NCBI GenBank assembly: GCA_018902845.1 | Contig: JAHIPV010000020.1 | Coordinates: 10,810-74,809, forward strand | Direction of reading: 5' to 3' | DNA: 64,000 bases | Origin: Patescibacteria group bacterium | Lineage (GTDB): Bacteria; Patescibacteriota; Microgenomatia; UBA12405 | Part shown: one piece after another, positions 30,332 through 64,000 of the stretch | How positions within the stretch are numbered: the first letter of the stretch is position 1 | Layout: the number at the start of each line of letters is the position of its first letter | Notes under the pieces: generated by a model | What the model was told of the DNA's origin: nothing | Database searches by the model: none | Seen by the model: the letters and a program-made list of their open reading frames with translations, nothing else | Position numbers and translations under genes: made by a program

Positions 30332-30361
30332 AACTATAATTATAAATTGGGATATATTAAT

Positions 30362-32026: not shown

Positions 32027-32031
32027 TTTAT

Positions 32032-32970: not shown

Positions 32971-32973
32971 TTT

Positions 32974-47211: not shown

Positions 47212-47751
47212 CTAAGGTCTTGTCCGAAGGTTGCTCCCTCTTTTTTTTGTTGATAATTTCTTTTTTAGGTCGTTTATATAAACGAAGTATTTTCTAAATT
47301 TTCTTAATAAGGCCGAGTATTTTTTTGGATTTGGAATGATAATGTGGGAGAGTTTGTTTTTCTTTTTGAGATATTCTATTAAGCAGTGAAAGTCTCCGTC
47401 GCCTGAAACAATGATTGCTTTGTTGTAATTGGGATATTGGATCATGGTGTGTAAAACCAGATCAGCGTCTACGTTGCCCTTGGTGTATCTTTTATCGTCT
47501 TTTTTGTATTCCAGTGTTGGTTTAAAAACAACTATATAGTCGGATTCTTGCAGATATGTGTAAAGTATTTGGTTTCCGGGAATGTAACCAATGAATAAAA
47601 AGGCTTTTTCAACTTTGTATTTATCTTTGAGGTAAATACGGAATCTTTTGAAATCTAGTTTCCAGCCTTGAGATCTGATGGAGAGGTTTAGGTTTTGGCT
47701 GTCAATGAAAGCGTAAATGGGCTTGGTTATTTTTTTATTTTTTTTAGACAT
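47212..47751 (-). CDS. NYN-domain (LabA-like) protein, tandem paralogue
   Basis: PIYAFIDSQNLNL ... KGNVDADLVLH ... AIIVSGDGDFHCL. Confidence 0.7.
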   Translation of the reverse strand: MSKKNKKITKPIYAFIDSQNLNLSIRSQGWKLDFKRFRIYLKDKYKVEKAFLFIGYIPGNQILYTYLQESDYIVVFKPTLEYKKDDKRYTKGNVDADLVLHTMIQYPNYNKAIIVSGDGDFHCLIEYLKKKNKLSHIIIPNPKKYSALLRKFRKYFVYINDLKKKLSTKKRGSNLRTRP

Positions 47752-47806: not shown

Positions 47807-48604
47807 TTAGATGTTGTCGGCGAAGGTTTTTTCTTGAGTTTTGAAATATTTAAGACCGATTAAAAGAGTAAGAATAGAAACTAAAAGGGCGATGAACAGA
47901 CTGGTAATGTTTGGCATTCCCCTGCCTAGAATTGATTGGCGGTAAGCGTTGGTAAGAACGCTTAAGGGATTGAGCTGGAATATGAAGCGAAGATGGGCCG
48001 GAACTATGTCTATCGGGTAAATAATGGGAGTTAGGTACATCCAGAGCATAAGAATAAGACCAAGCATGTATTGGACATCACGATAAATTAGATTGGCGGC
48101 AGAGAAAAAAAGAGAAACACCCAGAGTGAAAATTTGTTGAATCAGAAATATGGGTATGAACCACAAGACATTTAGATTGATTGGGATTTTGTAGATAAAG
48201 AAAAAAGCGATTAAGATGGTAGAAGCGAAAAAGAAATCAATGATTTTGGCAATGATGGTAGCTAGGGGTAAAATAGTTCTGGGAAAATATATTTTTGTGA
48301 TTAAGTTAGAACTGTTGACAAGTGAATTGGTGGCCGAAGAAAGAGAATTTGAAAAAAGAGTCCATGGCAAGAGAGCGGTGTAAAGGAAAATTGAATATGG
48401 GATTTTGGAATTGGCGTGAGTGGGAATACGCATGATGACAGAAAAGGCGAAGCTCATAACCAGCATTTGTAAGAAAGGGTTTAAGATTACCCAGAAGTAG
48501 CCTAGAATTGATTGTTTGTAACGGGCTTTGATTTCGCGACCGACCATTTGAAAAAGCAGTTCTTTGCGAGCTAGGATGGCTTTGGTTTCGGTGATGAGGA
48601 GCAT
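47807..48604 (-). CDS. ABC-2-type polysaccharide export permease (Wzm/TagG/KpsM-like)
   Basis: 265 aa with 6 TM helices, typical ABC-2 topology. It is the partner of the ATPase at 45668..46405. Confidence 0.75.
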   Translation of the reverse strand: MLLITETKAILARKELLFQMVGREIKARYKQSILGYFWVILNPFLQMLVMSFAFSVIMRIPTHANSKIPYSIFLYTALLPWTLFSNSLSSATNSLVNSSNLITKIYFPRTILPLATIIAKIIDFFFASTILIAFFFIYKIPINLNVLWFIPIFLIQQIFTLGVSLFFSAANLIYRDVQYMLGLILMLWMYLTPIIYPIDIVPAHLRFIFQLNPLSVLTNAYRQSILGRGMPNITSLFIALLVSILTLLIGLKYFKTQEKTFADNI

Positions 48605-48952: not shown

Positions 48953-49492
48953 ATGGATGAAGAGAGTAAAAAAGAATTAGCTGTAATAATTTCTGACTAT
49001 ATTGAGTCGTTGTCTTTGTTGAAGCAGTATGATGATAGGAAAATAAGGGTTTCTGGTTTGTCTGAGAAAGTAAAGTATGTTTTGGAATATAAAAAAGTGG
49101 TTGGTCTGGTGATGGAGCTGAGACAAGACTTGATTAAAAAGAATTTGGCTACAGAATTATTTGGAGTTGAAAATAGTAAAAAACTGGATGGGTTGATTGG
49201 GGCTATTAATCAAACTTTTGATGGAAAAAATTTGTATTCAAGTATTGAAGAAAAAGCGGCTAATTTGTTGTATATGGTTATTAAAGATCATCCTTTTGTC
49301 GATGGAAATAAAAGGACGGCGGCGACTTTGTTTGTATATTTTTTGAATAGAAATGGATATTTGTTTAAGAAGAATGGCGAAAGAAAGATTGATGATAGGG
49401 CTTTGGTGGCTTTGACTTTGTTGATTGCGGTCAGTGATCCAAGGGAGAAGGAAATGATGGTTAAGTTGACGATGAGTTTGATAAAGAATTAG
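48953..49492 (+). CDS. Doc-type Fic-fold protein (death-on-curing toxin family)
   Basis: DHPFVDGNKRTAATLF matches the Doc motif H-x-F-x-D-G-N-K-R. Confidence 0.65.
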   Translation: MDEESKKELAVIISDYIESLSLLKQYDDRKIRVSGLSEKVKYVLEYKKVVGLVMELRQDLIKKNLATELFGVENSKKLDGLIGAINQTFDGKNLYSSIEEKAANLLYMVIKDHPFVDGNKRTAATLFVYFLNRNGYLFKKNGERKIDDRALVALTLLIAVSDPREKEMMVKLTMSLIKN

Positions 49493-49706: not shown

Positions 49707-51539
49707 TTGGAGTTTGGTAGAATTGGAGATATGGGACAGAGGAAGATAAAAGCAGAAAGACGAAAAAAGAAAAACAAGGAGATCCTTCGCTACACTCAGG
49801 ATGACGGTGGGAGGCAGAATGACGGTGGGAGGATTCAGAACGACGGTGGGAGGCAGAATGACGGGGGGAGGGATTCGGGACGGGCTCGGTTTTGGTTTGG
49901 CAAGGTTGGAATAAGGGGAATATTGAGGGAGAATTGGAAGTTTTTGGTGATATTAACGATGGGGATTGTTTTGCTTTATTTGAATGCAATGAGAGGAGAT
50001 TTTGTGTCTGATGATTATGCCACTATTCCAAACAATCCTTTAATCAAGGATATGTCAGCCGGTTTTAAGGGTTTGAACGTTGTTTATATAAGCAATGTGA
50101 TTATCGCCAGACTTTTTGGAGTTACTCCCCTCCCTTTTCATTTGTATAGCCTCTTTTTGTTTATTTTGACTTGTGTGGTGGCTTTTCTTTTTTTGCGAGT
50201 TTTGTTTGGTGAAAAAGTAGCCAAATTAACGACAATTATTTTTGCCGTTCATCCGATTCATGTTGAGGCGGTTTCTTGGATTTCGGGAAAACCCTATACT
50301 TTGGCTTCTATGTTTATGTTGGCGGCTTTGCTGGTTGGAGTGTTTTTGGTGGAGACAAGGAAAAGAAAATATTTGATTTGGATGATAATTTTTGCTCTTT
50401 TGGCTTATCAGTCCGATGCGGCTAGGTCTTTATCTTTTATATTTTTGTTTTTGCTGTATTTGTGGTTTAGAGGTGGACTTGGAGGGATGAAAAAGCAGTT
50501 TTATAGATATTTGCCTTTTGTATTGGTTGTTATAACAACGGGAATTGTAATTTTGTGGCCTGGTATTAAGACAAGAATTGAGTCTGTTAATTCGGGATAT
50601 AATCGAGTTGGAAGTATTTTTTATAATCCGTTTTTTCAATATCCGACTTCGGTAACAAAGTATTTACAATTAATGCTGATTCCGGCTGATTTGACACTTT
50701 ATCACACTATGTATACTGTTCCGGTTTGGCTGAATTGGTTGGTTTTGGTGACATTTTTGTCTTTGTTGATATATTCTTTTTTTAGAGATAGAAAGATTTT
50801 TTTTGGATTGAGTTTTATGTTTTTGGCTTCGGTGGCTTCAATGGCGCCGGTTAAGGTTGGCTGGCTGGTGGCAGAAAGGTATATGTTTTTGGGGAGTTTG
50901 GGATTTTGCCTGGTACTGGTTTTGTTTTGGGACAGGATTCCTAAAAAACTGAAATTAGTAAAATTGACAGTTTTTGTATGTTTAATTATTGGTTTTACGG
51001 TTAGAACTTTTGTGAGAAATATTGATTGGCAAACTAATCATAAACTTTGGGTAAATACTGTTCAGACATCTCCAAACAGCCATAATGCTTGGAATAATAT
51101 TGGAGATGATTACGATAAATTAAAAGACTATGAAAACGCCATAAAGGGATTTACTCAATCAACTGTGATGAAGGCCAATTATGCCGATGCCTATCATAAC
51201 AGGGCCAATATTTATTTGAAAACCGGACGTTTGGATTTGGCCAGAGACAGTTATTTGACTGCTTTAAAATATTCCCCCGGTTTGTTTCAGACTTATGTGA
51301 GCTTGACTCAGGTTGAATTGATGCAGAAAAAACCTGAAAAGGCAATGGAATATGCCAAAAAAACGGTTGAGATGCAACCAAACAATTTTCAAGCCCATTA
51401 TGTTTTGGGGGTAGTTTTGGCTCAGTCGGGAAATAGAGAGGAGGCTTTAAAAGAGATAAAGATTTCTTTACAACTGAACCCTAATTTTGGGCCGGCTAAA
51501 GATGCGTTGGTTAAACTAAATTCAGATGAATCAAAATAA
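49707..51539 (+). CDS. Transmembrane + C-terminal TPR-repeat protein (TMTC/GT-C-like architecture)
   Basis: About 9 TM helices followed by 4-5 TPR units (NAWNNIGDDYDKLKDYENAIKGF ... AYHNRANIYLKTGRLDLARDSY ...). The first ~60 codons are repeat-derived, so the true start may be internal, for example near 49951. Confidence 0.55.
   Translation: MEFGRIGDMGQRKIKAERRKKKNKEILRYTQDDGGRQNDGGRIQNDGGRQNDGGRDSGRARFWFGKVGIRGILRENWKFLVILTMGIVLLYLNAMRGDFVSDDYATIPNNPLIKDMSAGFKGLNVVYISNVIIARLFGVTPLPFHLYSLFLFILTCVVAFLFLRVLFGEKVAKLTTIIFAVHPIHVEAVSWISGKPYTLASMFMLAALLVGVFLVETRKRKYLIWMIIFALLAYQSDAARSLSFIFLFLLYLWFRGGLGGMKKQFYRYLPFVLVVITTGIVILWPGIKTRIESVNSGYNRVGSIFYNPFFQYPTSVTKYLQLMLIPADLTLYHTMYTVPVWLNWLVLVTFLSLLIYSFFRDRKIFFGLSFMFLASVASMAPVKVGWLVAERYMFLGSLGFCLVLVLFWDRIPKKLKLVKLTVFVCLIIGFTVRTFVRNIDWQTNHKLWVNTVQTSPNSHNAWNNIGDDYDKLKDYENAIKGFTQSTVMKANYADAYHNRANIYLKTGRLDLARDSYLTALKYSPGLFQTYVSLTQVELMQKKPEKAMEYAKKTVEMQPNNFQAHYVLGVVLAQSGNREEALKEIKISLQLNPNFGPAKDALVKLNSDESK
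49797..49872. repeat. Tandem 21-bp repeat x3.5 (GGGAGGCAGAATGACGGTGGG-type), derived from a family-B terminus
   Basis: It would encode DDGGRQNDGGRIQNDGGRQNDGGR in frame. Confidence 0.7.
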
Positions 51540-52926
51540 GGTTTTAATTTTAAATCTTTTTTGTAGAGATAAGAATATCAATCGGGATATGGCCGGTGGT
51601 TTGGGTTATAGCGCTGGTGATGGGGTAATTTTGCCTCCTTTGGATTTATTGATAATTGCTTCTACTTTGAGGCAATTGGGCAAGAAAGTTTTTTTTGTTG
51701 ATGCAATTGCGGAAGGGATTAATGATTTTGAGGTTATTAAAGATTTGATTGTTAAAGAAAGAATTGGGATTTTGATTGGTAATTTGGCTTTGCCGACACT
51801 TAAAGAAGATGTGGAATTTTATAAAAAGGCAAGGGAAGAATTTGGTGATATTAAAATAGTTGTTAAAACAGGAATAAATTATAAGGAAATTTTGGTGGAT
51901 GTGTTTGAGAAATCCGGAGTGGATGTAATTGTTTTTGCTGAGTGTGATCTGGATATCATGGATTATATTGAGGGAAAAAAGAAACAGGGTTCAGTGCAGA
52001 AGATTAAAGGAGAGTTAAGATTTTTTCCGGTTAAAGAAAGGTTTAACAAAATGGATTTATTGCCGGTGGCGGCCAGGGATTTGGCTAAAAATGAATTGTA
52101 TAAATATGTCTTATTGCCTGAAGGTAAAATGACTACCATGCAAACAAGCAGAGGTTGTCCTTTTGCCTGTTGTTATTATTGCCCCTACCCCCTGGTTCAG
52201 GGGAAAAAGTGGAGAGCAATGTCTGTTTTAAGAGTGATTAAAGAGGTTAAGGCAATAGTTTTTTTGGGGATTAAGAATGTTTTTTTTAGAGATGCCACTT
52301 TTACTTTGGATATGGCAAGAACGGAGAAAATTTGTGAGTTGTTGATTAAAAAAAAGATCAAAATTAATTGGTGGTGTGAAACAAGGATAAATGTTTTGAG
52401 TGAAGTTTTGTTGAAAAAAATGAAGAGGGCTGGTTGTCTTGGAATAAACATTGGGGTGGAAACAATGGATAGAGATTTAATAAGAATTGAGGGCAAGCCG
52501 GGGGTGACTTTGGATGATGTGATTAAAATCAGGAATTTGGCCAAGAGAATTGGAGTTAAACTGCATTTTTTGATGGTAGTGGGATTACCGGATGACAATG
52601 CTTTGTCTTTGTATAATACTTTTAAGTATTTGACGGAATTAAATCCGGAAACGATGGGTTTTACTGTAATAACTCCCTATCCCGGCACTGAAATGTTTAA
52701 AGAGGCGTTTAAAAAAGGGTTGATTAAAAATTTTAATTGGAATAATTTTGATGGCTCCGGGATAAACATGAGAACAAAGTATTTATCCAGAATAGAGATT
52801 GGATTAGCAAAACATCTTTTGTCGGCCAGTTCTTATTTCTTAAAAAGAAATTTGATTTTGAAGAGTTTTGGAATATTTTTGATTGATAAGATTTTTAGAA
52901 TTTGGATTTTATTGAGAAAAAAATGA
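51526..52926 (+). CDS. B12-binding-domain radical SAM protein (class B-like) with an atypical Cys motif
   Basis: N-terminal Rossmann-like B12-type domain. The cluster motif is SRGCPFACCYYCPY, with Cys at positions 0, 4, 5 and 8 rather than the canonical CxxxCxxC. Confidence 0.7.
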   Translation: MNQNKVLILNLFCRDKNINRDMAGGLGYSAGDGVILPPLDLLIIASTLRQLGKKVFFVDAIAEGINDFEVIKDLIVKERIGILIGNLALPTLKEDVEFYKKAREEFGDIKIVVKTGINYKEILVDVFEKSGVDVIVFAECDLDIMDYIEGKKKQGSVQKIKGELRFFPVKERFNKMDLLPVAARDLAKNELYKYVLLPEGKMTTMQTSRGCPFACCYYCPYPLVQGKKWRAMSVLRVIKEVKAIVFLGIKNVFFRDATFTLDMARTEKICELLIKKKIKINWWCETRINVLSEVLLKKMKRAGCLGINIGVETMDRDLIRIEGKPGVTLDDVIKIRNLAKRIGVKLHFLMVVGLPDDNALSLYNTFKYLTELNPETMGFTVITPYPGTEMFKEAFKKGLIKNFNWNNFDGSGINMRTKYLSRIEIGLAKHLLSASSYFLKRNLILKSFGIFLIDKIFRIWILLRKK

Positions 52927-53840
52927 AGATTTTTGTAACCGGGGCTACTGGAAAAATAGGTAAAAAAATTACCAGACTTTTAGTTGAAAATAGATATAGC
53001 GTGGTTGCTTTGTATAGAGATAAAAAAAGGATATTTTTGAAGGATAAAATTGAATGGGTTAAAGGAGATTTGTTGGATTTGCCGAAAAAAGCAAGCGAAT
53101 GGTTGAAAGAATGTGATTTGATTGTGCATATGGCCGGGAAATTGGGTATGTTTGATAGAGATTGTTTGCGGGTTAATGTTGAGGGCACTAAAAAATTGTT
53201 ACTGTCAATAGATGGGGGAAAAAGGATTAGATTTATTTATTTTAGTTCCATTGATGCCTTTGGAACTACCGGTAAAAAACAGGTTAATGAAAAGGATACT
53301 GCTCTGCCCTATTGTGTTTATGGAAAGTCAAAACTTCTAGCAGAAAAAGCGATAGTTAATTATAGAAAAAAGCATAAATCTTTTTCTTATGTAATTTTGC
53401 GTTTGGGTAATGTGGCTGGATTTGGTGGTGAAGATTTGTTGTCTTGTTTGTATTCAATTAAAAAAAAGAATTTTTTGTTAAAGAAAATATTAATTGGTCT
53501 TTTTGGTGAAAATGAGCTAAATATTGTTTGTATCAACGATATTAAAAGAGTGTTTTTGCAAGTTATTAAAAAAAAGAAGTATAAAAACAGGGTACGGTTT
53601 TTGACAGGAAAGAATGTTAGTTTGTTAATGCTGGTGAGTGGCAGTAGTGGTAGTTTTTTGTTTAAATGTTTTAAAATTGTTTTGCTTTGTTTAATGAAAG
53701 TTAGCAGGAGGGGTGGTTTTTATTACTATTTGGGAGCGGGTGGAGTTTTGAGACCATACAGAAGATACTCCAATAAAATATATGAGGAATTAAAGGTGAA
53801 ATTAAAAAATGAATGTATCAATAATAATAGCAACTTATAA
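52923..53840 (+). CDS. NAD-dependent epimerase/dehydratase (extended SDR)
   Basis: MKIFVTGATGKIGKKI. The start overlaps the previous gene's stop in an ATGA junction. Confidence 0.7.
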   Translation: MKIFVTGATGKIGKKITRLLVENRYSVVALYRDKKRIFLKDKIEWVKGDLLDLPKKASEWLKECDLIVHMAGKLGMFDRDCLRVNVEGTKKLLLSIDGGKRIRFIYFSSIDAFGTTGKKQVNEKDTALPYCVYGKSKLLAEKAIVNYRKKHKSFSYVILRLGNVAGFGGEDLLSCLYSIKKKNFLLKKILIGLFGENELNIVCINDIKRVFLQVIKKKKYKNRVRFLTGKNVSLLMLVSGSSGSFLFKCFKIVLLCLMKVSRRGGFYYYLGAGGVLRPYRRYSNKIYEELKVKLKNECINNNSNL

Positions 53841-54729
53841 CAGAGCTGATATTTTAAAAAAGGCTGTTGTTTTGTTAAAAAAACAAAAAACAGATGTAGA
53901 TTTTGAGGTATTGATAGTTGACGATGGTTCGGATGAAAAAAATAAAAAGAAGTTGAAGTTATTAGAGAAAGATTCCAGATTCAGATTTTTTTATAGAAAA
54001 AAAAGGGGTCCGGCCGGAGCCAGAAATTTTGGGATTTTAAAATCAAAAAATGATGTTTTGATATTTATGAATGATGATACTTTTGTGTCAACGGATTTTG
54101 TAAAAAGGCATTTTGAATTTCACAAAACGAATAAAAATGAGGAAGTTTTTTTAACCGGTCCAATGATAAATTATCCTAAATTTAGAATTAGTCCGGCCAT
54201 GGAGTGGCTTTTGAGCAGGAGCAATTTGCATTTTGATTATAGTAATACGGATAACGCTAATTTAGATTGGGGATTTTTTTGGACATGCAATGTGTCTTTG
54301 AAGAAAAAATTTTTGTTAAAAAATAATTTGTTTTTTGATGAGAATTTTCCAAAAGCGGCTTGGGAAGATTTTGAATTTGCTTATAGAGCCAGTTTAAAAG
54401 GAATGAAACTTTTTTATGACGAAAAGTTAACTGTTTATCATTATCATAAATTTAATTTTGATGATGTTTTGAATAGATTTTTTAATCATGGAAGAGGATT
54501 GTATTTTTTGGAACAAAAGGTACCGGCAAAATATTTGCCCCCTATGGGTAAAGATAAATCCAGAAAATTGCTTAGATTTTTTTTGTTTATAAGCATGAGT
54601 TGCTTTTGGTTAAAAATTTCTGAAAAAAGATTAAAAAAGAGTAAAAAAATTTCTAATATATTGATGCAGTTATTAGTTTTGGCTGAAAAATTGAAGGGCT
54701 ATGACTTTGAAAAAAGAAAAATACGATAA
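53809..54729 (+). CDS. Glycosyltransferase family 2
   Basis: VSIIIATYNRADIL ... VLIVDDGSDE. Confidence 0.75.
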   Translation: MNVSIIIATYNRADILKKAVVLLKKQKTDVDFEVLIVDDGSDEKNKKKLKLLEKDSRFRFFYRKKRGPAGARNFGILKSKNDVLIFMNDDTFVSTDFVKRHFEFHKTNKNEEVFLTGPMINYPKFRISPAMEWLLSRSNLHFDYSNTDNANLDWGFFWTCNVSLKKKFLLKNNLFFDENFPKAAWEDFEFAYRASLKGMKLFYDEKLTVYHYHKFNFDDVLNRFFNHGRGLYFLEQKVPAKYLPPMGKDKSRKLLRFFLFISMSCFWLKISEKRLKKSKKISNILMQLLVLAEKLKGYDFEKRKIR

Positions 54730-55444
54730 GGATTATTATAATCGGGGCATAATAGGAAAAGGATTGGAAGATATCTTGATTAGATTGGCGAATCTTGGAG
54801 TATTGAGAGGAGTTAAGGATGGGGCTAGGATTTTGGACTTGGGATGCGGGCAGGGGTTGTGGTTAGAATATTTAAGGAAAAAAGGTTTTGATGGTTGGGG
54901 ATTAGATACCTCTAGGGCGGCGATTGGGGAAGCGGTTAAACGGTTGGGGAAAAAGAAATTGATAGTTGGTGAGTTAGAGAGGGTTGGATTTAAAAAGAAT
55001 TTTTTTGATGCAGTAACTTGTTTCCATGTTTTGGAACATGTAAAGAAAGCTGATAGTTTAGTAAAGGAAGTTTTTGGAATACTTAAAAAAGACGGGTTGT
55101 TTGTTTTGAGACTACCGGATTTTTCTTCTTGGGAGGTGAAGTTGGCTGGTGAGAGATGGTTTCATGGCGATGCTTTGTACCATGTAAAAAATTATGATAA
55201 AAAATCGGTTGTAAAGTTATTGAAAAAAGCGGGTTTTGAGCAAATTGAAGTTAAGCCGGCTTTGTTTGAGTATAGACAGACTTTGTTGTATTCACTGATT
55301 AATTTTTGTGGGGTTGAAAAGATTAGTAGATTTTGGCGGTTTTTGCTTTTGCCTTTGCAGTTATTTTTTGCGCCTTTGTCGTTTTTTTTGGCAGTGGTTT
55401 TTGCCAATAGCGGGACAATGGAAGTTAGAGCTTTGAGAGGATAA
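54701..55444 (+). CDS. Class I SAM-dependent methyltransferase
   Basis: ARILDLGCGQGLW ... VTCFHVLEHV ... LKKDGLFVL. Confidence 0.75.
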   Translation: MTLKKEKYDKDYYNRGIIGKGLEDILIRLANLGVLRGVKDGARILDLGCGQGLWLEYLRKKGFDGWGLDTSRAAIGEAVKRLGKKKLIVGELERVGFKKNFFDAVTCFHVLEHVKKADSLVKEVFGILKKDGLFVLRLPDFSSWEVKLAGERWFHGDALYHVKNYDKKSVVKLLKKAGFEQIEVKPALFEYRQTLLYSLINFCGVEKISRFWRFLLLPLQLFFAPLSFFLAVVFANSGTMEVRALRG

Positions 55445-55453
55445 GATAAATAA

Positions 55454-56902
55454 GTGAGTAAAAAGATTAAAGTATTAATAGCTAATTCTGTAGGAAAAGA
55501 TGAAAATGGAAATAATTTTATTTTGTTTCCCAGTCGGTGGACAGCCAATGTGGGCAAGACAAAGTCTTTTAATTTTTATCCCTATGAATTGGCTTATTTG
55601 TCAAGTATTTTAAAAAAAGAAAATTGCTGGGATGTATTAATGGTGGATGGGAATTTTGAGGCTTTGGATTGGAAAAAATATTTTGAAAAATATAAATTTG
55701 TGAAACCGGATTTTTTGGTGATGGAAACTTCCAGTGTGGTGTATGAAATGGATTTGAAATTTGGACTGGCTTTTAAGAAGAAATATGGAACAAAATTGAT
55801 TTTTTGTGGCCAGCACCCCAGCGCTTTTGCCAAAGAGGTAATGAAGGATGGGGTGGATTATGTTTGTTTGGGTGAATATGAATTGACGGTTTTGGATATT
55901 TTGAAAGGAAAAAAGAGATCGAAAATCAGGGGTTTGTATCCGAATGAAAGGAGGGAGCTTTTGGAGGTTGATTGTTTGCCTTTTCCTGAAGATGATGATA
56001 TTTCTCGAATAAATTATGCTGACATTGGCGGTTGTGATTATAAGGAAATAGAATTTTTTGCCAGCAGAGGGTGCATGATGAATTGTAATTTTTGTGTAGC
56101 TTCTCAGTTGTATTATAAAAAACCGAATTGGAGAGGAAGGAAAATTGAGAATATTGTGGAAGAAATTAAGTATTTGAAAAATAAATATCCAGAGATGGAG
56201 GGGATATTTTTTGATGAGGAATACCACAATACCAAAAAAAGTTTTATTTTGGATTTGTGTAAAGGCATAATTGATAATGGTTTGGCGGATTTAAAGTATG
56301 ACGCCATGTGTGGTTATTGGACTTTGGACAAAGAGATGCTTGAAGCTATGAAAAGAGCCGGTTATTACAAAATTAGGATTGGGATTGAGTCGGTGGATAT
56401 GAAAACGGCTAAAGGTATAAAGAAAAATATTAATATAAAAAGGCTTTTGAAAGTGTTAAATTTGGCCAAAAAAGTGGGGATGAGAATGTATGGCACTTTT
56501 ACTTTTGGGGCTTTGGGATCGACTGCCAAAAGCGACAGGAAGACGATTAATTTTTTGTCTGAGCTTTTGGATAAGAATTTGCTTTATGATTTTCAAACAT
56601 CAATATGTACTCCTCAACCGGGGACAGGATTTTTTGATTGGCTGGATAAGAATAATTATTTGTTTACCAAAGATTGGTTGAAATATGATGGGAAGACGGC
56701 GGTTTATGAATACCCTGATTATTCAAAAAAAGAGATTGAAGATAATTTAAAATTGGCTCATGTAATTTATGCAAAGAAAGAATTGAAAGACAAGGGATAT
56801 TTAAAATTGATTGGTGATGAAATCAAAAAGTCCGGTTTATTGGGTTTTTGCCGTAAAAGTTTTGAATTGGGGAAAAGCTACTTTTTTTCAGTTAGGCGGT
56901 AA
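55454..56902 (+). CDS. B12-binding-domain radical SAM protein (class B)
   Basis: ASRGCMMNCNFCV (CxxxCxxC), probable GTG start, and an N-terminal B12-type domain. Confidence 0.8.
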   Translation: MSKKIKVLIANSVGKDENGNNFILFPSRWTANVGKTKSFNFYPYELAYLSSILKKENCWDVLMVDGNFEALDWKKYFEKYKFVKPDFLVMETSSVVYEMDLKFGLAFKKKYGTKLIFCGQHPSAFAKEVMKDGVDYVCLGEYELTVLDILKGKKRSKIRGLYPNERRELLEVDCLPFPEDDDISRINYADIGGCDYKEIEFFASRGCMMNCNFCVASQLYYKKPNWRGRKIENIVEEIKYLKNKYPEMEGIFFDEEYHNTKKSFILDLCKGIIDNGLADLKYDAMCGYWTLDKEMLEAMKRAGYYKIRIGIESVDMKTAKGIKKNINIKRLLKVLNLAKKVGMRMYGTFTFGALGSTAKSDRKTINFLSELLDKNLLYDFQTSICTPQPGTGFFDWLDKNNYLFTKDWLKYDGKTAVYEYPDYSKKEIEDNLKLAHVIYAKKELKDKGYLKLIGDEIKKSGLLGFCRKSFELGKSYFFSVRR

Positions 56903-58070
56903 AGATTTGTTGATAAATACGCTTGGTTCTTTTTTTCCAGTCCCAGGTATGGATTATAAGATCGTAGGCGTCTTTAGATGTTTTTTTGTAGAGAGTTGGA
57001 TTATCCAGTAATTTTATTATGTTTTGGGCGAATTTATCCAGGTCGTATTTTGGGGTTTTTAATATGCCTTTGGGGTAATAGGTTTTTAGCGATTCCAGGT
57101 CAAAAGAAACTGCCGGTAATTTGTATGCCATACCTTGAGCGGCTGACATTCCCCCGCTATCAAAAGTGGCCGGATGGAGAATCATTTTGCTTTGTTTGAA
57201 AATATTTTGTGTTTGGGTATTTTCTTTGAAGCCAGTAAGAATAATATTATTTTTTAGACCAAGTTTTTTTATCTTGTTTTTTACCTTATTCATTAATTCT
57301 CCATCGCCTATCATGACCAGTTTGGCATTTGGTTTTTGGGCAACGACTTTTTTCCAAATATCTATTAACTCTAAAACTCCTTTTTGAAAATGGAATCTGC
57401 CCATGAAACAGGCGTCGTATTGAGGTTTCTCCCTTCGGGTGACTTGGGCTTTGCATGTGATTGAATTTGGAATATCAACTCCTCCCTGGACAATTATGAC
57501 CTTTTTGTGGGGGAATTTTTTTGTGTCGGGTTTTGAAGTGACCAAAACAAAATCAGCCCATTTTTTGACTATAAACAAACTTGGTTGTTGCATTGTCCAG
57601 TAGAGAATACCTTTGATTTTATTAATACCCTTGTATGGAGAAGAGTGTGAAAAAGGAGGAGGGGCGAGGAGATAATATCCGGCTATCCATTTTATCTTGG
57701 GATTGATTAATTTGGAGTAAAAAGCAGGCAGTAAATCGGGATAAAAGTCTGAGGCTGAGTAAATAAAGTGGCTATTATTGATAATATTGCCGTGCTTTTG
57801 TGCAGTTTTTAATCCTTTGATTGTTCTTCTGACAGTATGTTTTAGTATATTGAATGTTGAAAAATGGTTCGGATTAGTATTTTTTGTATCTGTTTTGATT
57901 ATTTTTATGTTTGATAATTGATGGCGATTAAAAATATTAATAGTTTCTTGGCTGGCCAGAACAGTAATTTTTAGTTTTTTTTGCCAGTGTTTGATGAAGT
58001 TGATAAGTATAGTATCGCCGCCGCTAAGACCGTTGCCGAGGTTGTTGTTGGCTATGATTAATAGATTCAT
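56892..58070 (-). CDS. Glycosyltransferase family 4
   Basis: C-terminal GT-B motifs LHPATFDSGGMSAAQGMAYKLPAVS. Confidence 0.7.
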   Translation of the reverse strand: MNLLIIANNNLGNGLSGGDTILINFIKHWQKKLKITVLASQETINIFNRHQLSNIKIIKTDTKNTNPNHFSTFNILKHTVRRTIKGLKTAQKHGNIINNSHFIYSASDFYPDLLPAFYSKLINPKIKWIAGYYLLAPPPFSHSSPYKGINKIKGILYWTMQQPSLFIVKKWADFVLVTSKPDTKKFPHKKVIIVQGGVDIPNSITCKAQVTRREKPQYDACFMGRFHFQKGVLELIDIWKKVVAQKPNAKLVMIGDGELMNKVKNKIKKLGLKNNIILTGFKENTQTQNIFKQSKMILHPATFDSGGMSAAQGMAYKLPAVSFDLESLKTYYPKGILKTPKYDLDKFAQNIIKLLDNPTLYKKTSKDAYDLIIHTWDWKKRTKRIYQQIFTA

Positions 58071-58125
58071 GGTTACTGGACAATTAGATAACTGGATTAC
58101 TAGATTACTGGATAACTAGATAAAG
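58071..58125. repeat. Octamer-family array in a divergent promoter region
   Basis: GGTTACTGGACAATTAGATAACTGGATTACTAGATTACTGGATAACTAGATAAAG. Confidence 0.7.
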
Positions 58126-58150
58126 AATAATTTGTATTAAGATATTATAA

Positions 58151-58807
58151 ATGGTTAAAGTTAATCTTGGTTGTGGGCCTAGTGGAATAGAGGGGTGGTT
58201 GAATTATGATTGGGGGATTTTACCGTTGTTATCCAAATTTACAGGTTTTAGAAAATGGCTAGTGGGTTTAGGATTACTTCCGAGGGATTATGATATTGGT
58301 TGGCCAAAATTAAGGCTTTGGGATATAAGATGGAGGTTACCGTTAAAAAATAATAGTGTGGATTTTATTTATTGTTCGCATGTATTGGAGCATGTGGAGT
58401 ATTGGCAAAGTAAAAATATTTTAAAGGAGTGTAGGAGAGTTTTGAAAAGAAATGGTGTTTTGAGAATAGTGTTACCGGATATGGGGTTGATTGTTAAAAA
58501 ATATTTCTCCGATGGTCCGATGAATCGGACAGCGGAGTGCCTGCGGCAAAAAGAGTTTAATATGAATGTTTTTGGGGTTGATAGGAGTAAATTTAATGAT
58601 GGGTTTTTGAGCAAATTGCAAAAATTTTTTATTCGGGAACACAGGTGGATGTACGATGAAAAGGATATGGTGTTTTTGTTAAAAAAGGCGGGTTTTAGAA
58701 AAATAAAAAAATGTAGTTTTAGAAAAGGGAAAATGGCCGATATTGATAAGTTGGATTTAAAAATACATAAGGAACTGAGTATGTATTTTGAAGTGGAAAA
58801 GATATGA
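58151..58807 (+). CDS. Class I SAM-dependent methyltransferase (Methyltransf_11-like)
   Basis: VNLGCGPSGIEGW ... IYCSHVLEHVEY ... LKRNGVLRIVLPD. Confidence 0.7.
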   Translation: MVKVNLGCGPSGIEGWLNYDWGILPLLSKFTGFRKWLVGLGLLPRDYDIGWPKLRLWDIRWRLPLKNNSVDFIYCSHVLEHVEYWQSKNILKECRRVLKRNGVLRIVLPDMGLIVKKYFSDGPMNRTAECLRQKEFNMNVFGVDRSKFNDGFLSKLQKFFIREHRWMYDEKDMVFLLKKAGFRKIKKCSFRKGKMADIDKLDLKIHKELSMYFEVEKI

Positions 58808-60384
58808 AAACTTTACTTGTATGTGTTGGTAGTTTTTATTCTCATAGATATGAGAAGTTTAAGCATTATATATCTCCTTTGGGTATTTCTTCAATCAGTG
58901 CTTATTTAAAGGCCAATGGAATGGATTGTTATTTAATTGACATGAAGTTGCTTTCGGGTTGGAAAGAGTTTGGAGAAAAAGTACTGGCCATATCTCCAGA
59001 TGTTGTTGGTTTGTCGTTGATGACAAGTGAAATGGGCAATACTGCCGGAGTGATAAATTTTATTAAAAAAATAAGGCCGAAAGCTAGAATTATAGTTGGT
59101 GGGCCTCATGTTACGGTTTTACCAAAAGAAACAGTTAGCATGTCAGGTGTTGATGTCGGAGTAATTGGAGAGGGCGAAGTTACATTTTTGGATTTGTTGA
59201 GATGTTTTGAGAAGAATGGAAAACTAAACTTTGTTAATGGGATTGTTTTTAAGTTAAAGGATAAAATAGTTTTTACTAAAGCACGTCAATATATCAGGAA
59301 TCTTGATAAATTGCCTTTTGTTGATCGAAACATTATCGGATCAGAAGGTTGGTATTCCAAGGCTTATGGTTTGTTTTTTCCTATGAGATATCCATTTGCA
59401 AATGTTATTGTGAGTCGTGGCTGTCCGGGGAGGTGTACTATGTGTCAGCCAACTTTGGATTTAATTTTTGGTAGACCGGCCAGATTTAGAAGTCCTGAGA
59501 ATGTTGTTGGTGAAATCAGAGAGTTGATTGAAAAATACAAGATTAAAAGTATTATCTTTTGGGACGATACTCTGACTGCTAATGTAAAGTGGCTTGAAAA
59601 GTTTAGTAATTTACTTATTAGAAAAAAAATCAATATAGATTGGTGGTGTTATTCCAGAGTTAACAATATAAATGACGATATTTTGGAGATAATGAAAAGG
59701 TCCGGGTGTAAAATGATATGTTTTGGTGTTGAGTCCGGGTGTCAACGGATATTAAATGAAGTGATGAGAAAAGGTACGACTGTGAAGCAAAATATTAAAG
59801 CTGTGAGTCTTTGTCGTAAACATGGAATTTTGGTGAATGCCAATGTAATGATAGGTTCACCGACTGAGACTTTAAAGGAGGTTAAGATGACTGATGCTTT
59901 ATTAAAAATAACTAAACCGGATATTGTTTGGGCTTCTGTAACTTCGCCTTTGCCCGGAACATATTTAGAGGAAGATGCCAGAAAAAAAGGCCTAATTATT
60001 ACAAAAAAGTGGGGAGATTTTACCAGAGGGCAGATTGGAAAAACCAAGTTGAAGTTGAAAATTAGTCTTGATGAGATGGTTAAATATCAAACGCGTTGGC
60101 ATCAAACAAGATTTAAACCAATATATATTTTTAGAAAGTATTATCTAGTTGCCTGTTTACGGCTTTTTTTGTGTCATATCAAGCAATTTCATTTTGAAAG
60201 GATTTTTTTGGATTTTTTAGTTGGGCCGATTATTGAGTTTGGACGCAGGATTTATTGGCGATATTATTTTAGATTTAAGACTAGACTACATAAGTCCGGC
60301 GTGTTTGTAGACGAGAGTGAAGAGATAGTAGTCCAGGGGGAAATCAAAAAATTTGAATTTCCAGCGGAGTTTTACCGGGATTAG
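58804..60384 (+). CDS. B12-binding-domain radical SAM protein (class B)
   Basis: VSRGCPGRCTMCQ. Confidence 0.8.
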   Translation: MKTLLVCVGSFYSHRYEKFKHYISPLGISSISAYLKANGMDCYLIDMKLLSGWKEFGEKVLAISPDVVGLSLMTSEMGNTAGVINFIKKIRPKARIIVGGPHVTVLPKETVSMSGVDVGVIGEGEVTFLDLLRCFEKNGKLNFVNGIVFKLKDKIVFTKARQYIRNLDKLPFVDRNIIGSEGWYSKAYGLFFPMRYPFANVIVSRGCPGRCTMCQPTLDLIFGRPARFRSPENVVGEIRELIEKYKIKSIIFWDDTLTANVKWLEKFSNLLIRKKINIDWWCYSRVNNINDDILEIMKRSGCKMICFGVESGCQRILNEVMRKGTTVKQNIKAVSLCRKHGILVNANVMIGSPTETLKEVKMTDALLKITKPDIVWASVTSPLPGTYLEEDARKKGLIITKKWGDFTRGQIGKTKLKLKISLDEMVKYQTRWHQTRFKPIYIFRKYYLVACLRLFLCHIKQFHFERIFLDFLVGPIIEFGRRIYWRYYFRFKTRLHKSGVFVDESEEIVVQGEIKKFEFPAEFYRD

Positions 60385-61827
60385 GGCCAGTTTGTAAGTG
60401 ATTTTGAAAAGGAGTTGGTAGAATTTTGATGGAATTCTTTTTTGCAGGAGATCGTAAGTATCTTTGTCCATGAGGCCAAAAATATATTGGGTCAACATAG
60501 CTGTTAACCTGCTTTGTTTATGCGTAATCCATTTTTGCTTATTAGTTATTTTAAAGGCATCTTCGGGAGACATAAGATAAGTACTCCAGCTTTTGAGATT
60601 TTTTGGATATTTTAGGCCTAGTTTAACTGCTCTTTTGAAAAGTGGAGCTCCGGGGTAGGGTAAGAAAACATAGTAAGTGTAGCGGTTTCTGTCACAAATT
60701 TTTAATAATTTATCTATTAAAGAAAGTGTGGTGGCGTATTCTTGTTTTACAAATTTTTTATTTTCTATCGCCTTTTTTGACCATGGCAGGCCAACTAAAA
60801 ATGAATAAAGAATTTTGATTTTGTATTTTTTGCAAAGACGAGTAAATTTTATTATTTCTTTTACATCCATGTCTTTTTTTATAAAATCAAGGGCTTTTTG
60901 AGAGCCGGATTCGGCTCCGGTTAAAATCATGACACAGCCGGTTTTTTTCATTAGTTTCCAGACTTTTTCTTTATATTGACTGAGTTGTCTGATCCTGCCG
61001 TTGGCATTTCCCCATTTTATGGAGATTTTATTTGTCAATAAGCCTTGGCAGATTTTGTAAACTCGGTTTTGATCGACAAAAAAGTTGCTGTCATAAACGG
61101 CAATGGAGTCAATCTGGTATCTTTTGTAAAGATATTGCCATTCTTTAACCACTTTTGTAGCGTTTAGGGCTGACCAGCGTCTTTTGTTGACTACTTGTTC
61201 TACGCAAAAACTACAGCGATGAGGACAGCCGTAACTTGAGATGTAGCTAAGTGTTCTTTTGCCGTATTCAGTGTTAATAAGACATTTTTCTATGTCTACC
61301 AAGTGGTAAGGCAGTGGCGGAAGTTTGTTTAAATTTGGCATGGGTTGATCGGGATTGGTATGAATGATATTGGCCTTTTTATAGGTAAGACCGGAGATGG
61401 TTGTCAAACTTTTTTTATTTTCCAGAGCAAAGACAAGTTTTGGGAAAACCTCGTCGGCGGGACCTCTTATAATCATGTCAACGAATTTATTTTTTATGCT
61501 TTCTATCGGTAGAATGGAAACATGCCAGCCGCCCCAGACTATTGGGGTTTTGGGAAAATGTTTTTTAAAAAGTTTGGCTATTTTTAGACCATCGTATATT
61601 TGAAAGCCGGTCATAGCAGAAATACCCAGACAAATGCTGTTTTGGCCGTGTTTGATTATTTCTTTTTCTAGGTTATTTTGTAAAAATCTTGAAAAGATTT
61701 TGACTTGATAACCTTTTTTGTCTAATACTCTGGAAATGGCCAGTAGGGACAGGGGGATGCCTTTCCATGAGCGGTTGTATGGAAGTGGGTTGGGGAAATA
61801 AAGAATGACTTTTTTAGTTTTTTTCAT
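60286..61827 (-). CDS. B12-binding-domain radical SAM protein (class B)
   Basis: SSYGCPHRCSFCV. Its 3' end converges on and overlaps 58804..60384 by about 100 bp. Confidence 0.8.
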   Translation of the reverse strand: MKKTKKVILYFPNPLPYNRSWKGIPLSLLAISRVLDKKGYQVKIFSRFLQNNLEKEIIKHGQNSICLGISAMTGFQIYDGLKIAKLFKKHFPKTPIVWGGWHVSILPIESIKNKFVDMIIRGPADEVFPKLVFALENKKSLTTISGLTYKKANIIHTNPDQPMPNLNKLPPLPYHLVDIEKCLINTEYGKRTLSYISSYGCPHRCSFCVEQVVNKRRWSALNATKVVKEWQYLYKRYQIDSIAVYDSNFFVDQNRVYKICQGLLTNKISIKWGNANGRIRQLSQYKEKVWKLMKKTGCVMILTGAESGSQKALDFIKKDMDVKEIIKFTRLCKKYKIKILYSFLVGLPWSKKAIENKKFVKQEYATTLSLIDKLLKICDRNRYTYYVFLPYPGAPLFKRAVKLGLKYPKNLKSWSTYLMSPEDAFKITNKQKWITHKQSRLTAMLTQYIFGLMDKDTYDLLQKRIPSKFYQLLFKITYKLALIPVKLRWKFKFFDFPLDYYLFTLVYKHAGLM

Positions 61828-61842
61828 GATGTGAGATGAAGT

Positions 61843-61933
61843 GCGTCATTCTGATCCGCCAGTTGGCGGAGAAGAATCCCAAGGGGAATTTGGTTCCGAG
61901 GGGATCCTTCGTTGCACTCAGGATGACGGCGGA
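61843..61933. repeat. Family-B palindromic repeat, intergenic
   Basis: GCGTCATTCTGATCCGCCAGTTGGCGGAGAAGAATCCC ... GGGGATCCTTCGTTGCACTCAGGATGACGG. It shares the TCCGCCAGTTGGCGGA module with the copy at 1183-1198. Confidence 0.65.
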
Positions 61934-61949
61934 TGGGCGATTGTAAAGG

Positions 61950-63104
61950 TTAATAATAGGTGTTTTCGATGGTTTGGGCATTTTTTATACTAAAATTATT
62001 TTTGGCGTATTTAAGGCAGTTTTTGGTTAGTTTTTTTAGTTGGTTTGGATTTTTATAAAAGAAACTTAATTCTTGTTTGAAATTTTTTAATGTAGGTGGA
62101 ATAATTTTGCCGACTTTATTATTAATTACATCAGGGATGGCCCCTTTGTTTGAAGCCAGGACCGGAGTACCGCAGAACAAAGATTCTATCGCCACTTTAC
62201 CAAAAGCTTCGTTATAAAGGGAAGGAAAAAGGAGAAGATCGGCCGATGAGTAGTAAAGGCTGAGTTTTTTGGGATTGATTTTTCCGGCGTAAAAAGTAAT
62301 GTTGGGAAACTTAATTGCTTTTTTTTCTAATTTTTCTTTTAATGGTCCGTGGTCGCCGATAACAATAAAGTGGATGTTGGGAAAGATAGAAATTAGTTTG
62401 ATAATTATTTTGATTCCTTTAATTGGGATAAGACGGCCGACAAAAATGGCGGTGAATTTGTTGGGAAGGTTTAGTATTTGACGGGCTTTGGACTTTGGAT
62501 GAGCTTTGAATTTTGTGTCATCAACCCAAAGGTAGTAAGTAGAGATCTTGTTGTTGTCGATTCCAATTTTAATCAGTTCTTTGGTTGAGGGTTGGGCTAG
62601 GGCCAAAATTTTGTCAAAAGAAGACAGAGTAAAAGAAGTTATTTTTGAGAATAATGAGGACTTTTGGAAGTTATAGATTGCGTAGGTGGAAGCGACAGTG
62701 CGAATTTTGAATATTTTTTTTAAGAGCATGGTAACAAAAGAGGCGTTTAGACCATGGGCATGAATAAGATCAAATCTCTGTTTTGTAAATATTAAAAAAA
62801 TGAAAGAACGTAAAAAAAGATATGGAGTCAGATAAAGAAATTCCAGAAACGGATATGGTTCCAGTTTGTGAAAAAGATTATGGCCCGGCCAACAAAAGCG
62901 ATGGATGGTGATGCGTTGTTTTTTTTCAAAACGAGGGGCGGGTGTGTTGATGGTTAACGGAGTAAAGGTAAGAACAGTAATTTGGTGACCATTCTTACTT
63001 AGATAGTTACATAAATCATCGAGATGGTTTTCTACTCCGCCTATATTAGGTTTGAAGAAAGGGGTGATCATTAATATTTTTTTTGGTTTTTTTATTGTTG
63101 CCAT
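61950..63104 (-). CDS. Glycosyltransferase family 4
   Basis: LFPSLYNEAFGKVAIESLFCGTPVLASN. The likely start is MATIKKPKKILMITPF near 63104; the predicted extension to 63206 overlaps the upstream gene. Confidence 0.75.
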   Translation of the reverse strand: MATIKKPKKILMITPFFKPNIGGVENHLDDLCNYLSKNGHQITVLTFTPLTINTPAPRFEKKQRITIHRFCWPGHNLFHKLEPYPFLEFLYLTPYLFLRSFIFLIFTKQRFDLIHAHGLNASFVTMLLKKIFKIRTVASTYAIYNFQKSSLFSKITSFTLSSFDKILALAQPSTKELIKIGIDNNKISTYYLWVDDTKFKAHPKSKARQILNLPNKFTAIFVGRLIPIKGIKIIIKLISIFPNIHFIVIGDHGPLKEKLEKKAIKFPNITFYAGKINPKKLSLYYSSADLLLFPSLYNEAFGKVAIESLFCGTPVLASNKGAIPDVINNKVGKIIPPTLKNFKQELSFFYKNPNQLKKLTKNCLKYAKNNFSIKNAQTIENTYY

Positions 63105-64000
63105 TTGGTGCGTGAAATTGGTTTTAATAATTTTAGGTGATATTTTATTGTTGTTAAGGAATAAGCAAAAAAAGAAATGAAACAGGCTAGTGGGTGAAAA
63201 AACCAAGCAGGATCCGGTTTTTTAAAATAGCCACGAAAAGAATCGATTATGGGGGGAAAGATAGTAAGAGTGTAGAGGGAGAATTTGATGATGCCGATGC
63301 GGTTAGTTTTTGACCAGTTGAATTGACGGATTGGTAGATAAGTGTAGTAATCAGTAAGACGGCGGAATTGTTTGCGGATAAATTTTGAAATTGATGATTC
63401 ACAATAAGAATGGATGATGCCGGTTTTGACTTTGGCAAAGTATAAGGGTTTTTGAGTTTTTTGTAGAATGGAAGAAATTAGATCGATGTCGAAGAAGTAA
63501 TTTGAAGGAGATCCTTCGACAGGCTCAGGATGACGGTGGAGGAAGGAAGAGCGAAGAATAGTTCCGTTGGCGCCGATGGTGGGAAGGGTGGAGTTTGGTT
63601 TTAGAGTAATTTTTATATATTGATCTTTATCTATTTGATCTATTTTTAGGCCAGTCCAAGTATTGGTTAAATATGAGAAGCGGTCATAGACCTTCGTAAC
63701 AAAAGCATAGGGGTCGTTGGCGCCGATTAATGCAGAGTAGCGTTCGATAAAGCCACCTGATTTGCGATAAGTAAATTTTATTGGTTCAGAGCCAATTAGA
63801 GAGGAGTCTTTTTCTAATGGTTTAATCATTTTTTTGAGCCAAGATTTGTTTGGTAAGATATTGTCTGAATCAATTAGGACAATATAGCGGTTTTTGGCCT
63901 TTTTTATGCCGATTGCTTTGGCGGACTCTCCCGTTTTTAGAGGGTTTTTGAAAATTTTGCATTTGTATCCTTTGGCGATTTTGATGGTTTTGTCGGTTGA
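63092..64000 (-). CDS. Glycosyltransferase (GT2-like), partial; N-terminus lies beyond the window end
   Basis: The frame stays open to the window edge and encodes ...NRYIVLIDSDNILPNKSWLKKMIKPLEKDSS with a DxD-like IDSDN. A family-B insert at 63508-63541 encodes HRHPEPVEGSP. Confidence 0.55.
   Translation of the reverse strand, partial: STDKTIKIAKGYKCKIFKNPLKTGESAKAIGIKKAKNRYIVLIDSDNILPNKSWLKKMIKPLEKDSSLIGSEPIKFTYRKSGGFIERYSALIGANDPYAFVTKVYDRFSYLTNTWTGLKIDQIDKDQYIKITLKPNSTLPTIGANGTILRSSFLHRHPEPVEGSPSNYFFDIDLISSILQKTQKPLYFAKVKTGIIHSYCESSISKFIRKQFRRLTDYYTYLPIRQFNWSKTNRIGIIKFSLYTLTIFPPIIDSFRGYFKKPDPAWFFHPLACFISFFAYSLTTIKYHLKLLKPISRTKWQQ
63508..63541. repeat. Family-B fragment inside the CDS
   Basis: GAGATCCTTCGACAGGCTCAGGATGACGGTGGAGG. 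Confidence 0.55.

Follow-up and report, generated by a model that had tools for sequence, protein, structure and literature searches.

Radical SAM enzymes in a patescibacterial glycan island: an AprD4-like protein and its reductase as candidates for deoxygenating a sugar after glycosyl transfer

What do several radical S-adenosylmethionine (radical SAM; rSAM) enzymes do when they are packed among the glycosyltransferases of a single bacterial locus? The question is raised by the region 51526-63104 of a 64,000-nt stretch of DNA from a Patescibacteria group bacterium (the window; GenBank assembly GCA_018902845.1, contig JAHIPV010000020.1, positions 10,810 to 74,809 of the forward strand), which encodes four such proteins, here rSAM-A to rSAM-D. 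A reading made earlier from the DNA letters (the sequence-only reading) had taken all four for class B, B12-dependent enzymes and proposed an exceptionally C-/O-methylated or otherwise rearranged surface glycan. The answer that we favour, with a little better than even confidence, is that the region forms the central part of a composite cassette for glycan tailoring in the cytoplasm, assembled from two modules that recur across phyla, in which rSAM-A and an adjacent short-chain dehydrogenase/reductase (SDR) would deoxygenate a sugar after glycosyl transfer. Gene content, family placement, motifs, folds, synteny and gene fusions are direct observations.

All four rSAM genes are long open reading frames (ORFs), in agreement with the sequence-only reading, and all match PF04055. 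These genes are real: orthologues of A, B and D are found at 45-72% identity in other phyla, in many metagenome-assembled genomes, and the gene set recurs as a group. The description of the four as paralogues was a loose one: their pairwise identity is 23-28%, and they represent separate old families instead of local duplicates. Indeed, recent local duplication was rejected on the basis of this low identity and of the orthologues that A, B and D each have in other phyla. The CxxxCxxC cluster motif that had been ascribed to each protein is present in B (CMMNCNFC), C (CPGRCTMC) and D (CPHRCSFC); A carries CPFACCYYC, a Cx3Cx3C arrangement. Similarly, an N-terminal B12-type domain had been proposed for each, and PF02310 is matched by C (88 bits) and D (34.4 bits), but B stays below the gathering score (26.4 versus 32.1 bits) and A gives no match. 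The outcome named beforehand as telling against the class B assignment, loss of the B12 fold by hidden Markov model (HMM) together with placement in a non-methylating family, was found for rSAM-A; C and D pass PF02310. Exact protein matches also locate the locus on contig JAHIMY010000028.1 of assembly GCA_018895715.1 and on sister assemblies. In the NCBI annotation A is a "radical SAM protein", and B, C, D and a fifth protein encoded beyond the window, rSAM-F, are each a "B12-binding domain-containing radical SAM protein".

The evidence centres on rSAM-A. Its best curated family in NCBIfam is AprD4 (NF033070; 246.3 bits), and the homology is full-length, covering residues 15-429 of the protein and profile positions 18-424 of 456; AprD4 in the PDB (6FD2) is matched over residues 16-422 (E=5e-54). 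The cluster motif aligns with CPYPCRFYC of AprD4. When 24 members of the A family were aligned, C211, C215 and C219 proved invariant, which gives the Cx3Cx3C spacing, and C216 variable. The Pfam scan of rSAM-A returned PF04055 alone, with no match to the B12-binding domain PF02310, and the GGxH motif of that domain is absent, VVKTGIN standing opposite AYTSIRS of AprD4, so that the two proteins are alike in the loss of the B12-domain motifs. Although AprD4 has a Rossmann-like domain, it binds no cobalamin (PMC12931638). When three Streptomyces AprD4-type proteins were added to the family alignment, 54 of the 66 residues invariant in the A family proved common to them, many of them polar (R20, D59, D95, E139, R184, Y192, R230, E240, R255, D256, R265, E285, R287 and E312), which argues for conserved chemistry in A. 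We therefore read these features as those of a protein that is almost certainly not a cobalamin binder, and predict that rSAM-A dehydrates a 1,2-diol of a glycoside and does so independently of cobalamin.

In the biosynthesis of apramycin, AprD4 acts together with the NADPH-dependent reductase AprD3 in removing the C3' hydroxyl of the glycoside paromamine, and a review from 2017 knew of no other radical SAM dehydratase (PMC5461906). The AprD4-type gene of Streptomyces has an adh_short reductase gene directly 3' of it. Here too a reductase gene follows immediately 3', the start of the SDR gene (52923-53840) overlapping the rSAM-A stop by 4 nt, and its product is predicted to be the NAD(P)H-dependent ketoreductase partner of rSAM-A. 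The likeness would extend to the substrate if rSAM-A does work on a glycoside, as the substrate of AprD4 is a sugar in glycosidic linkage (PMC5461906; PMC12931638).

A scan of species-representative genomes yielded 80 rSAM-A loci, whose ORFs were called and compared with the window proteins; neighbour counts refer to the 59 loci in which the A orthologue is flanked by 3 kb or more in either direction. The most constant neighbour is a family 2 glycosyltransferase (GT2), which lies within 3 kb or is fused to A in 48 of the 59. In 44 of the 59, an extended SDR is encoded no more than 3.5 kb away and on the strand of A, and in 42 of the 59 another class-B-like rSAM lies within 3 kb. The SDR count comes from a single-round seed profile with a coverage filter; an iterated profile (228 matches, "59 of 59 adjacent") was discarded for profile drift. 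At 29 of the 59 loci, A forms the N-terminus of an ORF of more than 700 amino acids. The two such ORFs checked with Pfam read rSAM-GT2-GT2-TPR (L031, 1,393 amino acids) and rSAM-GT-GT2x2-GT4-TPR (L039, 1,990 amino acids, with two GT2 domains), where TPR stands for tetratricopeptide repeats, and the rSAM_A-GT2-GT2-TPR fusion is present in Nitrospira. SDR, A, GT2 and a further rSAM form a core that recurs in Omnitrophota, Elusimicrobiota, Nitrospirota, Planctomycetota (Scalindua) and Falkowbacteria, and in one Actinomycetota assembly and one Methanoregulaceae archaeon. Loci L006-L010 of Shapirobacteria/Microgenomates keep most of the window set (TPR-membrane protein, A, (SDR), GT2, the methyltransferase MT1, C, B, the family 4 glycosyltransferase GT4a, MT2, GT4b, GT2x and D). 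The TPR-membrane protein orthologue stands directly 5' of rSAM-A in L005-L010, MT1 is kept beside GT2 and rSAM-B in Patescibacteria loci, and GT4a orthologues (44-48%) occur in L006-L010, L014 and L068. Fusion to glycosyltransferases and the constancy of the GT2 next to it link A with the assembly of glycans, and they would fit a substrate of A that, like that of AprD4, is already glycosidically linked.

The other rSAMs can be placed by comparison with class B enzymes of known structure (TokK, CysS, TsrM, MgmA/QCMT and OxsB), with which B, C and D share CxxxCxxC, and C and D also PF02310. Identities to these structures are only 12-19%, and the extra C-terminal domains of TokK, TsrM and OxsB are all absent. 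In residue-level alignments, GGxH is kept in the cobalamin-dependent TokK (AGGPHV) and CysS (LGGPQV) and in rSAM-C (VGGPHV) and rSAM-D (WGGWHV); it is degenerate in rSAM-B (CGQHP) and rSAM-F (MGDHV) and absent from rSAM-A (VKTGIN) and AprD4 (AYTSIR). The preceding motif, LSCYVW(76)N in TokK and ISCYVWN in CysS, corresponds to LSLMTSE in C and ISAMTGF in D; B and F were not aligned there, and A and AprD4 have no counterpart. The N-terminal domain of rSAM-C (GLSLMT, VGGPHV) aligns to TokK and CysS and gives the strongest B12-domain signal. AlphaFold models of rSAM-B (predicted local distance difference test, pLDDT, 93) and rSAM-D (pLDDT 90) have the Rossmann plus rSAM-barrel architecture. C and D are thus plausible cobalamin binders by their motifs, and binding by B and F is uncertain. 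Of these proteins, rSAM-C, which is lineage-specific, is the most canonical class-B-like member and the best candidate for a true cobalamin enzyme.

No cassette rSAM reaches the NCBIfam cut-off (251-775 bits) of any characterised class B equivalog (HpnJ, BchE, HpnR, PhpK, MgmA, BzaD, TsrM-type, KedN5, ladderane rSAM and others). HpnJ gives the highest scores for B (150 bits), D (118 bits) and F (119 bits), and C reaches 166 with BchE, 164 with HpnJ and 144 with PhpK, all well under the cut-offs. HpnJ and BchE are non-methylases, their matches with B, C and D (118-166 bits) lie far under cut-offs of 481-578, and these scores offer no evidence for methylase function. With GenK, GenD1 and Fom3, which act on sp3 carbons of sugars and small molecules, the cassette proteins share the general class B domain organisation, but no specific similarity was detected; related NCBIfam methylase models score far under their cut-offs, and no model named for GenK or Fom3 is among the matches listed for the cassette rSAMs.

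The families differ in their distribution. Orthologues of rSAM-B at 48-70% identity occur in Patescibacteria, Omnitrophota, Elusimicrobiota, Acidobacteriota and Altiarchaeota, and B adjoins A in several phyla (L007, L008, L011, L021, L022, L024 and L068); many A and B matches agree in the length of the longest contig, which suggests that they lie on common contigs. In some B orthologues (P0188, P0206) a SPASM-type rSAM is fused on, and the whole protein runs to about 800 amino acids. For rSAM-C, a close homologue (about 47%) was found among the A loci only in the Shapirobacteria loci L006 and L009. An exhaustive search returned 9,626 representatives at E<=1e-30, the nearest 45% identical; certain of these relatives (P0408, P0419, P0424, P0523) reach a giant size, 1.5-2.7 thousand residues, and contain 2-5 separate stretches that match rSAM. 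In the window rSAM-C and rSAM-D converge on opposite strands, their 3' ends overlapping by 99 nt (60286-60384), and the calls are the same on the NCBI contig.

rSAM-D has abundant orthologues (45-72% identity) with an invariant WGGWH motif. rSAM-F (541 amino acids) carries CWWGKCTFC, a Cx4Cx2C arrangement, and matches PF04055 only. At three loci from outside the Patescibacteria (L088 of Nitrospirae, L089 and L090), D (49-54%) is accompanied by orthologues of F (45-47%), GT4b (38-47%), MT2 (36-45%) and GT2x (46%). The MT2 orthologue lies directly 3' of the D orthologue in L088 and L090, and both loci have rSAM-SDR pairs that involve rSAMs other than A. One of them, L090 (JGI 3300045146, Ga0438316_0000036, 2206-19048), is a still denser cassette on a metagenome contig: in between its glycosyltransferases, three SDRs, methyltransferase and asparagine-synthase-like gene lie five genes for Rossmann-plus-rSAM proteins and one for a SPASM rSAM. 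The rSAMs usually keep company with class I methyltransferases or SDRs: MT1 precedes B, MT2 precedes C, F is followed by MT3, and in other phyla the order is SDR, D, MT2. Two conserved modules are therefore joined in the window, the first consisting of SDR, A, GT2, MT1 and B and the second of F, MT3, GT2x, GT4b, D and MT2.

Dehydratase and reductase chemistry, glycoside-level substrates and cobalamin use are what we infer from this arrangement, and a scheme can be outlined as follows. rSAM-A would abstract a hydrogen atom from the vicinal diol of a sugar already linked by the adjacent GT2, elimination of water would give a deoxy-keto sugar, and the translationally coupled SDR would use NAD(P)H to reduce the ketone, so that overall a sugar residue is deoxygenated after glycosyl transfer. 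B, C, D and F would make further radical edits, each usually next to a class I methyltransferase or an SDR; for C and D these may be C-methylation or another cobalamin-assisted radical step, rSAM-C presumably being a lineage-specific addition to module 2. Editing would take place on the cytoplasmic face and be followed by export. This location fits the proteins, because hydropathy analysis found no transmembrane segments in the rSAMs, MT1 has a C-terminal hydrophobic helix suited to the membrane (Kyte-Doolittle maximum 2.23, residues 213-240), and a Wzm/Wzt exporter is encoded in the window. More than one kind of editing, and not simply heavy methylation, is thus probable for the surface sugar, and the hedge of the sequence-only reading, an "otherwise rearranged" glycan, survives.

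Several observations weigh against this reading. rSAM-A lies well below the AprD4 equivalog cut-off (246 versus 500 bits) and is thus a relative of the family and no equivalog member, so that its chemistry could differ; overall identity to the Streptomyces AprD4-type proteins is about 31%. The partner is an extended SDR (PF01370), not a classical adh_short reductase, and the pairing is analogous, not orthologous. Furthermore, in the closest Shapirobacteria loci (L006, L007 and L009) the SDR is absent or distant. Unlike AprD4, rSAM-A is often fused to GT2 and is found in a surface-glycan context (Patescibacteria, Nitrospirota, Omnitrophota and others), not in an aminoglycoside antibiotic cluster, and neither neighbourhood nor glycosyltransferase fusion is proof of a glycoside over a nucleotide sugar as the substrate. 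As for cobalamin, the lower-axial Trp76 of TokK aligns with Ser75 of rSAM-C, in a weak alignment, and radical methylases usually have a hydrophobic residue at this position (PMC12931638, section 4.3). Finally, AprD4 is the top structural match for both rSAM-B and rSAM-D, which means that fold alone cannot separate cobalamin binders from non-binders.

Of the alternatives, the one that survives best, which we nonetheless hold to be unlikely, is that rSAM-A and the SDR carry out another radical sugar reaction, such as oxidation followed by reduction from the opposite face (an epimerisation), deamination or a C-C rearrangement, and that all of the B12-like N-terminal domains are purely structural. 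The sub-cut-off AprD4 score, the membership of the SDR in the epimerase/dehydratase family, the pairing of SDRs with non-A rSAMs in L088 and L090 and the structural proximity of B and D to cobalamin-free AprD4 would all be accommodated by it. However, the invariant residues shared between A and AprD4-type proteins, with many polar ones among them, are not what it leads one to expect, and motifs of the cobalamin domain that have disappeared from A and AprD4 persist in C and D.

Less likely still is the proposal that all four are cobalamin-dependent class B methylases of the GenK/Fom3 kind which, with the class I methyltransferases, yield an exceptionally C-/O-methylated surface glycan. Most characterised class B enzymes are indeed methylases (PMC12931638). 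The N-terminal domains of all four are Rossmann-like, C and D pass PF02310 and keep the GGxH of the methylases TokK and CysS, and class I methyltransferases adjoin B, C and F as well as orthologues of D. Against this, rSAM-A is of the AprD4 type, with its Cx3Cx3C, its missing B12-binding match and its lineage without cobalamin; B stays under the PF02310 threshold; and where TokK has W76, rSAM-C has Ser, not Trp or Leu. The methylase families (HpnR, PhpK, Sden_1168, KedN5, TsrM-type, MgmA) score at most 144 bits against cut-offs of 360-700, whereas the top families, HpnJ and BchE, are non-methylases. To our knowledge, Patescibacteria generally lack cobalamin biosynthesis. The claim that all four are class B and B12-dependent thus falls for A, given its missing B12-binding HMM match and its non-methylating AprD4 lineage, and stays plausible for C and D, and an exceptionally methylated glycan finds no specific support, the best curated matches of B, C and D being non-methylases. 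The methyltransferase content is also lower than had been counted. The interleaved SDR, one GT2 and two GT4s are as described, but the class I methyltransferases in the cassette are two, not three; elsewhere in the window, the sugar C-methyltransferase is confirmed, but instead of five further methyltransferases we find three class I genes (37960, 40594 and 43412). This count covers ORFs of at least 120 amino acids, of which 44 lie upstream of 49000, two of them (3793-4353 and 29345-30331) without a Pfam match and hence unclassified.

Least likely is that the rSAMs modify the head group of a membrane lipid or glycolipid (in the manner of HpnJ or of ladderane or tetraether enzymes) instead of a polysaccharide: among NCBIfam families, HpnJ ranks first or second for B, C, D and F and HpnA first for the SDR, MT1 is membrane-anchored, and the hopanoid pathway also pairs a GT2 (HpnI) with an rSAM (HpnJ), so that HpnJ/HpnI/HpnA resembles the cassette in combining GT2, SDR and an rSAM that acts (here, as the sequences suggest) on a glycosylated product, but the scores are 4-5 fold under the cut-offs (HpnJ 118-164 versus 577.6 bits, HpnA 63 versus 368 bits), Pfam scans show no hopanoid or other lipid-synthesis genes in the 64 kb, Patescibacteria are not known as hopanoid makers, the genes nearby encode glycosyltransferases, enzymes of nucleotide-sugar metabolism and an ABC-2 exporter of glycans, and A is fused to multi-domain glycosyltransferases in Nitrospira. 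A target among ribosomally synthesised and post-translationally modified peptides, or another peptide, was dropped in view of the glycan context, no search for small precursor ORFs having been made.

The surroundings are those of a glycan island. Pfam scans of nearly all window ORFs of at least 120 amino acids place the entire 64 kb in this class, with about a dozen GT2/GT4 genes, a Wzm/Wzt ABC-2 exporter, PMT_2-type GT-C genes and nucleotide-sugar enzymes (Table 1), and the locus does have the unusual density of Rossmann-plus-rSAM enzymes that the sequence-only reading had remarked on. Its statement that such cassettes in glycosylation islands are largely uncharacterised also holds up: no gene reaches any curated NCBIfam cut-off, and we found nothing relevant in the literature on rSAM-rich glycan cassettes in Patescibacteria or O-antigen loci, or on cobalamin in Patescibacteria. 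A paper on the C. jejuni capsule mentions an rSAM, but an unrelated one. The pathway at 22423-34233 suggests a branched or C-methylated amino sugar. The polytopic membrane protein encoded upstream of rSAM-A may be a GT-C (PMT_2-like) glycosyltransferase; a firm PMT label was downgraded, as its membrane domain matches PMT_2 below threshold (22.8 bits, gathering score 26.1).

Table 1. Features of the cassette and of the surrounding glycan island, in window coordinates unless stated otherwise
Feature	Coordinates	Strand	Domains and remarks
Nucleotide-sugar pathway	22423-34233	+	NTP-transferase, 4,6-dehydratase-type SDR, NeuB-cupin fusion (511 amino acids), further SDR, NUDIX protein, thiamine pyrophosphate-dependent enzyme (acetolactate-synthase type), GT2, DegT aminotransferase, 328-amino-acid protein without Pfam match
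Sugar C-methyltransferase	27138-28277	+	Methyltransf_14 C-terminal domain
SPASM-type rSAM	28348-29436	+	In nucleotide-sugar pathway
Wzt-like ABC ATPase	45668-46405	-	Pfam
Wzm-like ABC-2 permease	47807-48604	-	Pfam
Polytopic membrane protein with C-terminal TPR repeats	49707-51539	+	TPR families 71-74 bits; stop overlaps rSAM-A start
rSAM-A	51526-52926	+	PF04055
SDR (extended)	52923-53840	+	PF01370 Epimerase 84 bits; GATGKIG and YGKSK motifs
GT2	53809-54729	+	PF00535 91 bits
MT1, class I SAM methyltransferase	54701-55444	+	Methyltransf_23 92 bits
rSAM-B	55454-56902	+	PF04055
GT4a	56892-58070	-	PF00534 94.7 bits
MT2, class I methyltransferase	58151-58807	+	Methyltransf_11 42 bits; stop overlaps rSAM-C start by 4 nt
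rSAM-C	58804-60384	+	PF04055; PF02310 88 bits
rSAM-D	60286-61827	-	PF04055; PF02310 34.4 bits
GT4b	61950-63104	-	PF00534 94 bits; Glyco_transf_4 65 bits
GT2x, 3' part of a 354-amino-acid GT2 gene	63092-64000	-	Start beyond window end; in-window ORF 63092-63829 is its C-terminal part
Beyond the window	Contig L085 1-10013		GT2x start, MT3 (202 amino acids), rSAM-F (541 amino acids), three more GT2, one GT4, two PMT-type GT-C

Further features of the island stand apart from the cassette. Two NYN-domain (predicted RNase) genes (46518-47102 and 47212-47751, minus strand) separate the Wzt-like and Wzm-like genes, and toxin- and defence-like genes sit within the island: AbiEii (13687-14469), two Fic/DOC genes (19048-20109 and 48953-49492), DUF4143/AAA_14 ATPases (15443-16588 and 17891-19021) and an archaeal-type ATPase with DUF234 (10299-11690). 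A GC-rich 33-nt element, CACCGTCATCCTGAGCCTGTCGAAGGATCTCCT, lies in frame within GT2x (63506-63538, minus strand) and codes for HRHPEPVEGSP. A second copy with 4 mismatches is found at the 5' end of the TPR-membrane ORF (49777-49809, minus strand), followed by tandem GGRQNDGG-coding repeats, and the same peptide is also present in rSAM-F (contig L085 6717-8342, beyond the window). The element resembles a small dispersed repeat that coding sequence can accommodate. G+C content is about 34% over the whole window, and GC skew is strongly positive throughout (+0.16 to +0.48 per 2-kb window) in plus- and minus-strand gene zones alike, which points to a very strong replication-strand-associated bias. 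Rfam and tRNA scans of the window found no features.

Returning to the reading of the cassette as a site of sugar deoxygenation after glycosyl transfer, a broader version can be put forward tentatively, as a possibility that falls clearly short of even. Modules 1 and 2 would then represent a widespread and as yet uncharacterised post-glycosylation radical editing of cell-surface glycans, in which AprD4-like enzymes act on lipid- or polymer-linked sugars while physically coupled to glycosyltransferases (in Nitrospira by fusion), and B, F and possibly D, like AprD4, work free of cobalamin. In such a scheme the AprD4-like enzymes may have been recruited from antibiotic pathways or be ancestral to them, and cofactor-poor Patescibacteria may in this way build deoxy or rearranged glycans.

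For enzymology, the locus adds B, C, D and F as orphan families of the Rossmann-plus-rSAM type, with clear conserved partners, and it illustrates that the label "B12-binding domain-containing radical SAM protein" implies neither cobalamin use nor methylation. If the proposed role of rSAM-A and its SDR is correct, AprD4-type chemistry would move from an antibiotic pathway into cell-envelope biology, in the surface-glycan operons of at least 10 phyla, and deoxy sugars would be made there after glycosyl transfer, not at the nucleotide-sugar stage.

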